A stretch of 64,000 bases of DNA from an uncultured archaeon. Its GTDB lineage: Archaea > Asgardarchaeota > Lokiarchaeia > Sigyniarchaeales > SOKP01. The position numbers and the translations under genes were made by a program. The notes under the pieces are model-generated. The model did no database searches. It saw nothing but the letters and a program-made list of their open reading frames with translations, and had not been told where the DNA came from. The DNA is taken from NCBI GenBank assembly GCA_964486045.1, contig CAZALK010000002.1, forward strand, positions 192,001 to 256,000. The letters are read 5' to 3'. This document shows, piece after piece, positions 792-58,214 of the stretch (the first letter of the stretch is position 1; every line of letters begins with the position of its first letter).

Positions 792-2729
792 TTGAAGAAT
801 ATGGGAAAAACTTTAACTGAAAAAATCTTGGAACAACATTTAGTAGAAGGTAAATTAGATAAAGGATCAGATATAGCAATCAAAATCGATCAAACTCTAA
901 CTCAAGATGCTACTGGAACAATAGCTTATTTACAATTTGAAGCAATGGGTATCTCACGAGTACAAACTGAATTATCTGTAAGCTATGTTGATCATAATAC
1001 ATTACAAACTGATTTTAAGAATCCTGATGATCACCGATATCTTCAGAGTATCGCAGCAAAATATGGCTTATATTTTTCAAGACCCGGAAATGGTATCTGT
1101 CATCAAGTTCATCTTGAACGATTTGCTCGACCAGGTAAAACATTATTAGGGAGTGATAGCCACACACCTACAGGGGGTGGTGTTGGATCAATAGCTATTG
1201 GAGCAGGTGGGCTTGATGTTGCCGCTGCTATGGCTGGCCAACCCTTCTTACTAAAAATGCCAAAAGTTGTGAATGTGTATGTTACAGGAAAACTTCCAGA
1301 ATTTGTGTCTGCTAAAGATGTAATATTAGAAATCTTGCGAAGAATTGGTGTAAAGGGAGCAGTAAATAAGGTCTTAGAGTATACAGGTCCAGGAATAAAA
1401 ACTTTAACGGCTCCTGAGAGAGGTACAATCACGAATATGGGAACTGAAACTGGGGCTACAACTTCAATTTTTCCTTCTGATGAGGTAACAAAAGAATTTT
1501 TAGAAGCTCAAGAAAGGGGAGATCAATGGATCCAATTAGAGCCAGATGAGGATGCTGTATATGATGAAAGAATTGAAATTAAATTAGACGAACTTGAACC
1601 ACTCGTTGCTGAACCTCACAGCCCTGGAAACGTGAAAACTGTAAAAGAGATTGAAGGTTTAAAAGTAGATCAAGTCTGTATTGGAAGTTGTACAAATTCT
1701 TCCCTAAAAGATTTGAAATCTGTTTCTAATATTCTCAAAGGAAGCACAATTGACGAAAATACAGTATTAACTATATCAGCTGGTTCACGCCAAGTAGTTG
1801 AACATATGATCCATTCTGGTGATATGATTAACTTATTAAAGTCAGGAGCAAGGATCCTTGAAAATGCATGTGGACCGTGTATTGGTATGGGACTTGCCCC
1901 TAAAACCAACGCTGTATCGTTGAGGACATTTAATAGAAATTTTCTGGGTAGATCTGGAACTAAAAGTGCTCAAGCTTATCTAGTAAGTCCTGAAACTGCA
2001 GCGGTTTCTGCTATTAACGGAAAGTTAACAGATCCTCGATCTTTTGGTTCTCATCCTGAAATCAAAATGCCAGTTAAATTTTTTGTAAATGATAATATGA
2101 TAATTCCACCACTTCCTATTGAAAAAACTAAGGATATAAAAATCGTGAGAGGTCCCAACATCAAACCTTTACCCGAATTTAATCCATTACTTGATATATT
2201 GTTAGGAGAAGTTCTCTTAAAAGTAGAAGACGATATTACTACAGATCACATAATGCCTGCAGGGGCGAAAATTTTACCTTTAAGAAGCAATATACCCGAG
2301 ATTAGTAAATTTGTATTTAATGTCGTTGATGAAACATTTCCTGAAAGGGCATTAGAAAAAGGAGGAGGCTTCATAATTGGAGGTGAAAACTACGGACAAG
2401 GATCAAGTAGAGAACACGCCGCAATTGCTCCCAAATATTTAGGTCTTAAAGCAGTAATTGTTAAATCCTTTGCACGTATTCATTTAGCAAATCTCGTTAA
2501 TTTTGGTATTGTACCATTAACCTTTGTAAATAAAAATGATTATAACAACATTGAACAAGGAGATAAGCTTGATATCGATCTTACTACTATCAATTCAGGG
2601 AAAATAACTTTAAGAAATCTTACTAAGAACAGTGAGATTTCATTGACACATTCTTTAAGTGATACTGAAATTGAAATATTAAAAGCTGGTGGAAAGCTTA
2701 CTTTCATCAAGCATAAACACACAAATTAA
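792..2729 (+). CDS. Aconitate hydratase, short (~650 aa) Aquifex/archaeal type; homoaconitase activity not excluded
   Basis: TQDATG, DHNTLQ, GICHQVH, GSDSHT, IGSCTN, CGPCIGMG, TFNRNF, TTDHI, NYGQGSSRE. The true start may be ATG 801. Confidence 0.9.
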   Translation: MKNMGKTLTEKILEQHLVEGKLDKGSDIAIKIDQTLTQDATGTIAYLQFEAMGISRVQTELSVSYVDHNTLQTDFKNPDDHRYLQSIAAKYGLYFSRPGNGICHQVHLERFARPGKTLLGSDSHTPTGGGVGSIAIGAGGLDVAAAMAGQPFLLKMPKVVNVYVTGKLPEFVSAKDVILEILRRIGVKGAVNKVLEYTGPGIKTLTAPERGTITNMGTETGATTSIFPSDEVTKEFLEAQERGDQWIQLEPDEDAVYDERIEIKLDELEPLVAEPHSPGNVKTVKEIEGLKVDQVCIGSCTNSSLKDLKSVSNILKGSTIDENTVLTISAGSRQVVEHMIHSGDMINLLKSGARILENACGPCIGMGLAPKTNAVSLRTFNRNFLGRSGTKSAQAYLVSPETAAVSAINGKLTDPRSFGSHPEIKMPVKFFVNDNMIIPPLPIEKTKDIKIVRGPNIKPLPEFNPLLDILLGEVLLKVEDDITTDHIMPAGAKILPLRSNIPEISKFVFNVVDETFPERALEKGGGFIIGGENYGQGSSREHAAIAPKYLGLKAVIVKSFARIHLANLVNFGIVPLTFVNKNDYNNIEQGDKLDIDLTTINSGKITLRNLTKNSEISLTHSLSDTEIEILKAGGKLTFIKHKHTN

Positions 2730-2781
2730 CAATTTTTTTATTCTTTTTATTTTTACTTATTTGACAAAAGTTCTTTATAAT

Positions 2782-2967
2782 TATCAGGATCTAGATTTTG
2801 AATGATAAAAAGACCGATTACTTTCTGTTTCTTATATATCGTTGGAACGTGAGTCAAACTACTAAAATACGATTAATGAATTATTTAGTATTTTTAAAGA
2901 ATATGAACAAGAAGGGAAAATAAGACTTGAATATGATAGTGATGTTTATTACAGTAAGTTGGAATAA
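2782..2967 (+). pseudogene. Remnant C-terminus of a class I SAM-dependent methyltransferase
   Basis: Manual translation YQDLDFE**KDRLLSVSYISLERESNY*NTINELFSIFKEYEQEGKIRLEYDSDVYYSKLE* resembles the GRLLSxSY...GKVRFEYDTxVY tail. In-frame stops, no start. Confidence 0.55.
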
Positions 2968-56946: not shown

Positions 56947-57023
56947 CTTAAATTTTTATAATTTAATAAGATAGAAGTTTTAGATTTTAATACAAACTAA
57001 TACAAAAATTAAGGCAAATTAAA

Positions 57024-58214
57024 ATGAATGAAATTGTTGAAAATGCAAAAAATCATTTTGAAAAATTAGTTACGGAACAGTTGGAACGCGTTGAACGTAT
57101 GAAAAGCGCAGGAGATTGGATAGATTACTCCAGTTTAAAACCCATCATTATTGGATTCGTTGGGGGTGATGGTATAGGGCCTTTTATTACGAAACACGCA
57201 CAAGCAATATTAGAGTATTTATTAAAGGATGAGATAGATAGTGGAAGAGTAGAATTTAGAGTAATAGAAGGGTTAACAATAGAGAATCGAGCAAAAGTAA
57301 TGAAAGCTATACCGGATGATGTCTTAGTAGAAATCAAGAAATGTCATGTCCTGCTCAAGGGGCCTACGACTACACCCAGAAAGGGAGATAAATGGCCTAA
57401 TATCGAAAGTGCTAATGTAACGATGAGACGTGAATTAGATTTATTTGCGAATGTTCGACCAGTAAAAGTTCCAGAATTAGGAATTGATTGGATGTTCTTC
57501 AGAGAAAACACTGAAGGAGCTTACGTATTAGGATCTCAAGGGATTAATATTACGGATGATCTAGCAATCGACTTTAAAGTAATTACCACTCAAGGATCAG
57601 ACCGAATTATACGCTTAGCTTTCGATTATGCCGCAAAAAACAAGATTAATCGATTGTCAGTGGTAACTAAAGCTAATATAGTCAAAGCTACGGACGGAAA
57701 ATTCCTTTCTATGGCAGCCGAAATAGCTAAAGAATACCCCCAAGTAAAATGGGATGATTGGTACATAGATATTGCAACCGCAAAACTAGTTGACCCTGCG
57801 CGTCAGAGCGATTTTAAGGTATTTGTCGCTCCAAACCTTTATGGGGATATAATTACTGATGAAGCTGCACAAATTCAAGGCGGAGTGGGAACTGCGGGGA
57901 GTGCGAATATTGGCAAACGATATTCTATGTTTGAAGCAATTCATGGATCTGCTCCAAGAATGGTGGAAGAAGGAAGGGCAAAATATGCCGATCCATCAAG
58001 CATCATTAAAGCTGCGGCATTACTTATGAACCACATAGGATTCACGGAAAAAGCTAAAAAACTTGAGATGGCACTCGATATTTGTGCGCAATATGAAAAG
58101 AAAGTAGTTCTAACTGGGAGAGACACTGGAGCGACTGGTGAAGAATATGCTAAGTATTTAATGGAGACACTCCAAGATCCAGACCTTGAAGGAAAATGGA
58201 AAGGATATCAATAA
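57024..58214 (+). CDS. icd: Isocitrate dehydrogenase (isocitrate/isopropylmalate family)
   Basis: GDGIGP, KGPTTTP, SANVTMR, RENTEG, KANI, NLYGDI, FEAIHGSAP. Directly downstream of aclBA. Confidence 0.85.
   Translation: MNEIVENAKNHFEKLVTEQLERVERMKSAGDWIDYSSLKPIIIGFVGGDGIGPFITKHAQAILEYLLKDEIDSGRVEFRVIEGLTIENRAKVMKAIPDDVLVEIKKCHVLLKGPTTTPRKGDKWPNIESANVTMRRELDLFANVRPVKVPELGIDWMFFRENTEGAYVLGSQGINITDDLAIDFKVITTQGSDRIIRLAFDYAAKNKINRLSVVTKANIVKATDGKFLSMAAEIAKEYPQVKWDDWYIDIATAKLVDPARQSDFKVFVAPNLYGDIITDEAAQIQGGVGTAGSANIGKRYSMFEAIHGSAPRMVEEGRAKYADPSSIIKAAALLMNHIGFTEKAKKLEMALDICAQYEKKVVLTGRDTGATGEEYAKYLMETLQDPDLEGKWKGYQ

Follow-up and report, generated by a model that had tools for sequence, protein, structure and literature searches.

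Our comparison of a 64,000-nucleotide stretch of DNA from an uncultured Asgard archaeon (hereafter the window; C2:192001-256000, on contig C2 of genome G000) with 60 related genomes leads us to favor, with modest confidence, the reading that the window holds an expanded, partly broken copy of a tricarboxylic acid (TCA) cycle gene supercluster already present in the ancestor of two or more families of Lokiarchaeia (Promethearchaeia), and that the encoded enzymes would form a soluble, amphibolic hub. In particular, the TCA genes of the window have the same order and strands as compact and intermediate clusters in relatives, and the differences are insertions of 1.1-13.4 kb.

The genome comprises 5.18 Mb in 45 contigs, in a bin that is 99% complete with 7.8% contamination, and its nearest records are Promethearchaeota/Promethearchaeia (Lokiarchaeia) metagenome-assembled genomes (MAGs). 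Gene calls combined a listing of open reading frames (ORFs) with Pfam and NCBIfam scans of all 50 larger window ORFs. These scans identified, at the positions given, every TCA gene listed in an earlier note, which had been made from the window sequence and had already placed the host among the Asgard archaea.

Compact and expanded forms of the supercluster

We compared the DNA around the ATP-citrate lyase (ACL) genes of the 60 relatives, comprising 36 genomes of the same genus, 14 of sister family f2, and 10 from five other families, which are not independent of one another. Two members of f2 carry the cluster in compact form, spanning 17-20 kb. Specifically, G042:C16 (125602-142706) has 12 genes in 17.1 kb, overlapping or nearly touching: korA-korB-sdhA-sdhB-fumC-FMN_dh-acnA on the minus strand; sucC-sucD-aclB-aclA-icd, divergent, on the plus strand; a spacer of 158 bp between the two; and no citrate synthase in the cluster. 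G046:C22 (23235-43202) has the same order, plus gltA between FMN_dh and acnA. At the genus level, G022, G026, and about ten further MAGs (L062-L072) have the same order at about 32 kb. Gene order and strands in the window match those in G042:C16, G046:C22, G022:C21, G026:C55, and L062-L072. The TCA genes of the window are as follows (coordinates, strand, product, supporting match):

792-2729, plus, acn645, single-chain aconitase of 645 aa, PRK07229/TIGR01342 type (NF005558, 976 bits, cut-off 612)
9547-12231, minus, acnA, AcnA-type aconitase of 894 aa (TIGR01341, 1304 bits, cut-off 945)
12247-13491, minus, gltA, type II citrate synthase of the archaeal/Gram-positive kind (TIGR01800, 433 bits, cut-off 421)
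14594-15649, minus, FMN_dh, FMN-dependent 2-hydroxy-acid dehydrogenase, candidate malate dehydrogenase (PF01070)
15666-17057, minus, fumC, class II fumarase (SQSSND and GSSIMPGKVNPTQ signatures)
30499-31260, minus, sdhB, iron-sulfur subunit (TIGR00384, 196 bits, cut-off 88)
31260-32972, minus, sdhA, flavoprotein of the succinate dehydrogenase (SDH) type (TIGR01812, 728 bits, cut-off 567)
34120-34992, minus, korB candidate, beta subunit of a 2-oxoacid:ferredoxin oxidoreductase (OFOR) (TIGR02177, 332 bits, cut-off 262)
34979-36691, minus, korA candidate, OFOR alpha subunit, gamma-alpha fusion (TIGR03710, 616 bits, cut-off 483)
41518-42636, plus, sucC, succinyl-CoA synthetase beta (NF001913, 373 bits, cut-off 370)
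42626-43498, plus, sucD, succinyl-CoA synthetase alpha (NF004230, 389 bits, cut-off 336)
53807-55096, plus, aclB, ACL beta (PF16114, 262 bits; PF24948, 229 bits)
55108-56946, plus, aclA, ACL alpha (6HXI_B, 775 bits; Citrate_synt C-terminal domain; GHAGA motif)
57024-58214, plus, icd, isocitrate dehydrogenase (ICDH) of the Iso_dh family, divergent homodimeric type (PF00180, 218 bits)

The acnA gene, the last gene of the minus-strand operon in compact clusters, starts 15 nt after gltA; the sdhA and sdhB genes overlap by 1 nt; and gltA, sucC, aclBA, and fumC are each single-copy in the genome. In f2 relatives, acn645 lies directly upstream of aclBA, giving acn645-aclB-aclA(-icd). The junctions that have widened in the window are as follows:

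korA-sucC: 4.8 kb here, 158 bp in G042
sucD-aclB: 10.3 kb here, 53-146 bp in G042
korB-sdhA: 1.1 kb here, about 10 bp in G042
sdhB-fumC: 13.4 kb here, overlapping in G042
FMN_dh-gltA: 1.1 kb here, 129 bp in G046

The inserts encode glycosidases (GH3, fucosidase), HepT/MNT, PIN, and DUF3368 proteins, thiolases with an acyl-CoA dehydrogenase, a GPH transporter, and others. Identities to G042 and G046 are 64-75% for the cluster proteins and 73-76% for flanking non-TCA genes; these similar levels fit vertical descent from a common ancestor.

TCA genes make up 37% of the 57.4-kb span that they occupy. If placement were random, eight independent units would share a 57.4-kb stretch of a 5.18-Mb genome with a probability of about 1.6e-13. 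GC content is uniform across the window (0.29-0.35), and independently assembled relatives repeat the full gene order between acn645 and the AOR gene. The clustering noticed in the earlier note is thus real and kept in relatives, and the contig is not chimeric. Elsewhere in the bin, two short contigs, C40 and C45, have 58-59% GC, compared with about 31% for the rest, and are probably contaminants.

Distribution of the modules among relatives

Counts of the cluster genes among the relatives are as follows (same genus; f2; other families; total):

aclA: 29/36; 8/14; 0/10; 37/60
gltA: 9/36; 4/14; 5/10; 18/60
cluster-type sdhA: 9/36; 2/14; 1/10; 12/60
cluster-type korA (at least 64% identity): 6/36; 2/14; 0/10; 8/60
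fumC: 32/36; 2/14; 2/10

ACL and citrate synthase occur together in 8 of the 60 relatives, ACL alone in 29, citrate synthase alone in 10, and neither in 13, indicating that the presence of both citrate enzymes is a minority state. Mutual exclusion of the two is not supported by these counts: within families f1 and f2, 8 genomes with both compare with about 9.6 expected under independence. In four closed genomes (G006, G044, G050, and G055) and in G042, the sole Citrate_synt-family match is the C-terminal domain of AclA itself; G044, G050, and G055 keep only the acn645-aclB-aclA(-icd) operon. Every genome with cluster-type korA also has cluster-type sdhA. The supercluster is therefore modular: ACL, aconitase, and ICDH are widely kept; sdhAB, korAB, and gltA are optional; and fumC is kept in most of the genus. 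The genome containing the window is one of few that keep all modules.

A different arrangement is seen in G059:C12 (L060 1-16688), from a more distant family of the same class, where FMN_dh-gltA-acnA-sdhAB is divergent from korAB, without ACL. A few kilobases downstream are genes for an HdrD/GlpC-like CCG protein and a Pyr_redox_2 flavoprotein, which could be electron partners of SdhAB.

Identity of the citrate enzymes, fumarase, and isocitrate dehydrogenase

ACL and citrate synthase truly co-occur in the window, as the earlier note had proposed. AclA scores 775 bits with Methanothrix concilii ACLY-B (6HXI_B), 743 with human ACLY, and 407 with Chlorobium AclA, placing it by sequence with the archaeal/eukaryote-like kind; it carries the GHAGA phosphohistidine motif, and with AclB it makes up a two-subunit ACL. 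The citrate synthase scores 309-329 bits with archaeal/thermophile citrate synthase structures vs 243-246 with methylcitrate synthases, and a profile search of the genome found no PrpD (MmgE_PrpD); on these grounds we rejected a 2-methylcitrate synthase.

FumC scores 449 bits with human fumarase vs 403 with aspartase. Although the aspartase-side model PRK12273 is barely passed (511 vs 510), the SQSSND and GSSIMPGKVNPTQ signatures and the higher fumarase scores rule out an aspartase. Class I fumarase was not found in the genome, leaving FumC as the sole fumarase candidate. The TGA codon seen in frame in some fumC orthologues precedes the true start and has no bearing on the gene.

The Iso_dh-family protein falls under every NCBIfam equivalog cut-off. 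It keeps the S-x-N-x3-R isocitrate motif, its cofactor site reads APRM, without Asp, and its gene always follows aclA; substrate motif and context point to an isocitrate dehydrogenase. The canonical oxidative-cycle set of citrate synthase, aconitase, ICDH, succinyl-CoA synthetase, and fumarase is present in full on this assignment of ICDH. ACL is not in itself a marker of direction, because the enzyme of Desulfobacter postgatei serves as an ATP-yielding citrate synthase in an oxidative cycle, making citrate and ATP (Moller et al. 1987, as reported in PMC9768450).

SdhAB is of the succinate dehydrogenase type

The flavoprotein of the cluster is of the SDH type by sequence, and the fumarate reductase (FRD) marker that the earlier note had read here is not borne out. 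Specifically, SdhA scores 513 bits with Escherichia coli SdhA vs 416 with FrdA, and a conserved motif has Gln in the window protein and throughout the cluster orthologues, at the site of E. coli SdhA Gln-50 and FrdA Glu-49. A residue swap there shifts each enzyme toward the opposite direction (PMC4145680). A paralogue on contig C19 has Glu at this position (KAHTIMAEGG).

Three Cys clusters are seen in SdhB. The genome gave no Sdh_cyt anchor match above cut-off, sdhAB has no small membrane ORF beside it, and a CCG protein was not found in the window. A genome search for MqnA and MqnD of the futalosine pathway, which did not extend to the classical Men pathway, was negative. A membrane-anchored succinate:quinone oxidoreductase with a quinone pool, as in a canonical cycle, was therefore not seen, which argues against full oxidative turning of the cycle.

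The C19 pair is TfrAB-like: one member is a 522-aa SdhB-CCG fusion, the other a 563-aa flavoprotein with the FRD-type Glu. It adjoins a methylmalonyl-CoA mutase gene (G000:C19:12103-17017; L057 2992-8113), and a multi-subunit OFOR is encoded 5 kb away. TfrAB, mutase, and OFOR likely form a succinate/propionate module. SdhA has been counted as a propionate-fermentation marker by Imachi et al.

Substrate of KorAB

KorAB is a generic two-subunit OFOR that passes TIGR03710 and TIGR02177 and falls under the Kor-specific models. KorA is about equally distant from the broad-specificity OFOR1 of Sulfolobus tokodaii (StOFOR1; 245 bits), another broad-specificity Sulfolobus OFOR (233 bits), and the Magnetococcus 2-oxoglutarate enzyme MmOGOR (235 bits). 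It keeps residues Arg344a and Asp468a of StOFOR1, and KorB keeps Lys49b and Leu123b; in StOFOR1, loss of Asp468a or Lys49b abolishes activity with 2-oxoglutarate, not with pyruvate (PDB 5B46-5B48). The korAB genes are always linked to sdhAB and sucCD, korA is lost along with sdhAB, and KorA orthologues of at least 64% identity were found in no genome lacking the cluster sdhA. The kept residues, the position between sdhAB and sucCD, and the co-loss with sdhAB make 2-oxoglutarate the likely substrate. Assignment of KorAB to 2-oxoglutarate by the earlier note thus holds as a candidate, with no sign of grouping with enzymes for other substrates.

KorA residues approximately 223-229 read YPMAPST where OFORs have an essential YPITP, a Thr-to-Ala change kept in all cluster orthologues; a KorA paralogue at C2:128-130 kb reads YPMTPAS. 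A contig search of genomes with KorA yielded close Asgard orthologues, one bacterial match at 34%, and nothing else, and the top 120 matches of a protein search were all Asgard orthologues.

Malate step and genome inventory

The genes that the earlier note named for its near-complete cycle are all present, but for the malate step a canonical malate dehydrogenase (MDH) was not found in the window or the genome. In particular, the genome has no Ldh_1_C match that would mark an Ldh_1-type MDH, and malic enzyme was also not found; malate:quinone oxidoreductase was not searched. Here and below, absence means not found with the given model in the 99%-complete bin, and Re-citrate synthase was not searched.

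FMN_dh is a candidate, on the strength of its family and position, for the missing MDH. Wherever a cluster contains gltA/acnA or sdhAB, the gene comes after fumC. About 70 further codons are open ahead of the listed ATG, back to 16 nt past the fumC stop; this stretch has no ATG, GTG, or TTG start and encodes an N-terminal C-x5-C-x7-C motif. The true frame thus reaches about 15649, and the G046 orthologue has an ATG start and 352 aa. FMN-type hydroxy-acid dehydrogenases normally oxidise their substrate. A lone Ldh_2 protein encoded on contig C9 is the other candidate and was set aside as the MDH: its best model, sulfolactate dehydrogenase, is under cut-off, and its gene lies beside that of a CDF transporter, with no contextual support.

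The whole-genome inventory that the earlier note had called for shows Wood-Ljungdahl and pyruvate:ferredoxin oxidoreductase (POR)-type enzymes to be present. CdhC, the acetyl-CoA synthase (ACS) subunit of the Wood-Ljungdahl pathway, is encoded in the genome and in all ten full-cluster genomes, and in f2 it is almost confined to full-cluster genomes; the cluster accompanies the Wood-Ljungdahl pathway and does not replace it. Seven OFOR genes of the genome bear POR_N, one of them belonging to a second two-subunit enzyme on C2, and three methylmalonyl-CoA mutases are encoded. Besides the POR paralogues, ACS is present as a source of acetyl-CoA. The window adds an archaeal-type phosphoenolpyruvate (PEP) carboxylase:

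6354-7811, minus, archaeal-type PEP carboxylase, second copy (PF14010, 612 bits; TIGR02751, 597 bits)

A 60%-identical copy on contig C6 adjoins a methylmalonyl-CoA mutase gene, and no counterpart was found in the relatives' clusters, in the DNA around their ACL genes.

Direction and role of the cycle

On the reading that we favor, the compact form would be two divergent operons with one short shared control region: operon 1, korAB-sdhAB-fumC-FMN_dh-(gltA)-acnA; and operon 2, sucCD-aclBA-icd. Inserted glycosidase, toxin-antitoxin, thiolase/acyl-CoA, and transporter genes would have pushed these units apart with order and strands kept. Operon 2 and acn645 would provide a freely reversible link from acetyl-CoA and oxaloacetate through citrate, 2-oxoglutarate, and succinyl-CoA to succinate; operon 1 would add citrate synthase, the SDH-type flavoprotein, fumarase, the candidate FMN malate dehydrogenase, AcnA, and the 2-oxoglutarate-capable OFOR, and so close the cycle. 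With soluble enzymes, the whole would be an organic-acid hub, amphibolic and non-respiratory, in an anaerobe living heterotrophically or mixotrophically, and CO2, if fixed at all, would be fixed via the Wood-Ljungdahl pathway. Gene identities, collinearity, distribution, genome inventory, and residue states are observed directly, whereas the direction of flux, the KorAB and FMN_dh substrates, and the SdhAB electron partner are inferred. Reversibility, proposed in the earlier note, gains from the co-occurrence of both citrate enzymes and from the kept KorAB residues, and loses from an SdhA that is not of the fumarate reductase type and from the minority state of genomes with both citrate enzymes.

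Several points weigh against the hub reading. Direction is judged from residue states and context only, and loss vs lateral transfer from identity levels, not from reconciled trees. All three marker enzyme types of the reductive TCA cycle, PEP carboxylase, and several POR-type enzymes are formally present. No quinone pathway or anchor was found, so that succinate oxidation would have no known acceptor; and with YPMAP in place of the essential Thr, KorA chemistry may differ from the Sulfolobus model.

A tentative alternative, to which we give appreciably less credence than to the amphibolic hub, is that ACL, not citrate synthase, is the primary citrate enzyme of Lokiarchaeia, with citrate synthase and soluble SdhAB as an optional add-on operon. 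This fits because ACL stands alone in the five relatives searched with the family model and is twice as frequent as citrate synthase. ACL may then either make citrate while conserving ATP or form the outlet of a reductive route from glutamate/2-oxoglutarate to acetyl-CoA, a route that may be akin to reductive glutamine metabolism via ACLY in animal cells, and an FMN/Fe-S malate dehydrogenase would be a possible electron partner of SdhAB.

Somewhat less likely is a complete reductive TCA (Arnon-Buchanan) cycle of the ACL type that would fix CO2 autotrophically or mixotrophically, as concluded for Lokiarchaeia by Bulzu et al. (bioRxiv 10.1101/385732); ACL would cleave citrate, KorAB would be a 2-oxoglutarate synthase, and SdhAB would be a soluble fumarate reductase. 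The enzymes that it needs include several that are present, namely ACL, a 2-oxoglutarate-capable OFOR, SdhAB, ICDH, PEP carboxylase, and several POR-type enzymes, and G042 has a full compact cluster with ACL as the only citrate enzyme. However, the key Wood-Ljungdahl enzyme, present here and in all ten full-cluster genomes, makes a reverse TCA cycle unnecessary for autotrophy; the cluster SdhA has the SDH-type Gln, and the FRD-type TfrAB lies elsewhere; and citrate synthase in the same operon set would make an ATP-wasting loop with ACL. Nor does the malate step favor this direction, given the oxidative habit of the FMN-type family and a canonical MDH that was not found.

A closed oxidative cycle burning acetyl-CoA, with electrons from succinate and malate passing to a high-potential acceptor, appears more doubtful still. 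Citrate would come from citrate synthase and/or from ACL in reverse, the latter yielding ATP, for which D. postgatei is a published precedent (Moller et al. 1987, as reported in PMC9768450). Operon 1 follows the oxidative order, and its SDH-type SdhA, citrate synthase, FumC, AcnA, and FMN-type dehydrogenase suit this direction. However, neither the SdhCD anchor nor futalosine genes were found in the genome, nor a CCG partner in the window; no terminal acceptor system was identified; and cultured relatives are syntrophic fermenters.

A eukaryote-like citrate shuttle, in which ACL takes citrate made by citrate synthase to acetyl-CoA, had been offered in the earlier note and is very improbable. 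The nearness of AclA to human ACLY and Methanothrix ACL and the presence of both citrate enzymes speak for it. However, no compartment or citrate carrier is evident, and POR-type enzymes and ACS already give acetyl-CoA. In addition, ACL is independent of citrate synthase, because most relatives with ACL carry it without any citrate synthase (29 of the 60 relatives have ACL without gltA). Chance co-location or an assembly chimera is excluded for practical purposes: the 63% of the span taken by non-TCA genes, the 7.8% contamination of the bin, and its two high-GC contigs count for very little against P of about 1e-13, uniform GC, and a collinear order in many independent assemblies.

Relation to known systems

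The TCA and ACL gene content of Lokiarchaeia is already known. Bulzu et al. described for Lokiarchaeia, the same lineage and gene content as in the window, a complete TCA cycle with ICDH, OFOR, ACL, and the Wood-Ljungdahl pathway, read as an autotrophic reductive TCA cycle, with sdhCD missing and an MDH guessed only via COG2055; ACL in Asgard archaea was also noted by Santana-Molina et al. The former work lists genes per genome and describes neither a two-operon supercluster and its erosion nor the patchiness of citrate synthase, the split between SDH and FRD types, or the FMN-type MDH candidate. In the literature we found no description of the two-operon architecture, the modular erosion, the ACL-only majority, or the SDH/FRD-type split. 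These additions are comparative refinements and not a new kind of system.

Green sulfur bacteria (Chlorobaculum/Chlorobium) combine, as here, ACL and citrate synthase in an uncompartmented cell with an OFOR-dependent cycle, and work by Tang and Blankenship from 2010 reportedly describes the ACL-type reductive TCA cycle of Chlorobi with flux both ways. However, Chlorobium AclA is distant (407 vs 775 bits), and Chlorobi are photoautotrophs without the Wood-Ljungdahl pathway and with membrane quinones. The physiological role of Methanothrix ACL, with which the window protein scores higher, is itself unsettled. AclA aligns end to end, including the GHAGA histidine, with the enzymes of Methanothrix (Methanosaeta) concilii (6HXI/6ZNW) and human (ACLY; 6HXH, 6O0H); the two-subunit layout is common to the window and Methanothrix, whereas human ACLY is a single fused chain.

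Desulfobacter postgatei, in the account cited above, is likewise an anaerobe with ACL, OFOR, and SucCD-type chemistry, there for acetyl-CoA oxidation. It is a sulfate-respiring bacterium with menaquinone and a membrane-bound SDH, an acceptor chain that was not found here. StOFOR1/2 have the same (alpha-beta)2 architecture without a ferredoxin domain, share the four kept residues with KorAB, and serve both the pyruvate and the 2-oxoglutarate steps. However, they come from an aerobic thermoacidophile and match the window KorAB at only about 245 and 205 bits, with YPITP changed to YPMAP in the cluster orthologues. Methanogen TfrAB, from an incomplete reductive TCA branch, resembles the C19 pair outside the window, whereas the window SdhAB lacks a CCG domain.

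Asgard central carbon metabolism feeds models of the life of the eukaryotic host cell, and the 'reverse TCA cycle of Lokiarchaeia' is, in these comparisons, a modular and frequently eroded supercluster. Since it always co-occurs with the Wood-Ljungdahl pathway, ACL alone should not be taken as a carbon-fixation marker in these archaea. The oddities of the system are ACL as the only citrate enzyme in most relatives that carry it, an SDH-type flavoprotein lacking an anchor in an anaerobe that seems to have no quinones, and a cluster-specific OFOR with an altered substrate motif.

Accessory genes in the window

Two accessory genes at widened junctions recur in relatives:

38753-40171, minus, GPH/MFS transporter, conserved accessory gene (PF13347)
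52159-53514, minus, lipoamide-dehydrogenase-like flavoprotein, divergent from aclB (Pyr_redox_2 and dimerisation domain; under all equivalog cut-offs)

The transporter gene lies between korA and sucC across the genus (G022, G026, G002, and L062-L072), and an orthologue of the flavoprotein gene lies between aclB and sucD in L070-L072. Toxin-antitoxin-like modules sit exactly at broken ancestral junctions: a DUF3368/PIN-like protein with a 74-aa partner (33324-34096), a HepT/MNT pair (37790-38633), and a PIN protein (51459-51947). A scan of the window with Rfam gave zero matches.

A plus-strand gene at 21104-22894 encodes a pyruvate-oxidase-like thiamine pyrophosphate enzyme with an N-terminal rubredoxin domain; the G022 cluster contains it too, as do L066 and L072, at 77-81% identity. 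In two plus-strand ORFs the Pfam match is confined to the C-terminal portion of the profile, and these ORFs may be truncated or split: a YdjC-like ORF at 23142-23792 (from position 56/266) and an amidohydrolase ORF at 40341-41405 (from 391/472).

Finally, an AhpC/TSA-family redoxin ORF on the plus strand (13650-14165) contains a TGA in frame at codon 54, which falls within a W-U-I-H-C motif. When this codon is translated, the 171 aa match PF00578 end to end, making it a candidate selenoprotein; its 3' untranslated region folds no better than shuffled sequence. The in-frame stop is kept in the G022 and G013 orthologues and in the genome's own paralogues at C14:124322 and C12:150968, the last of which has two stops.

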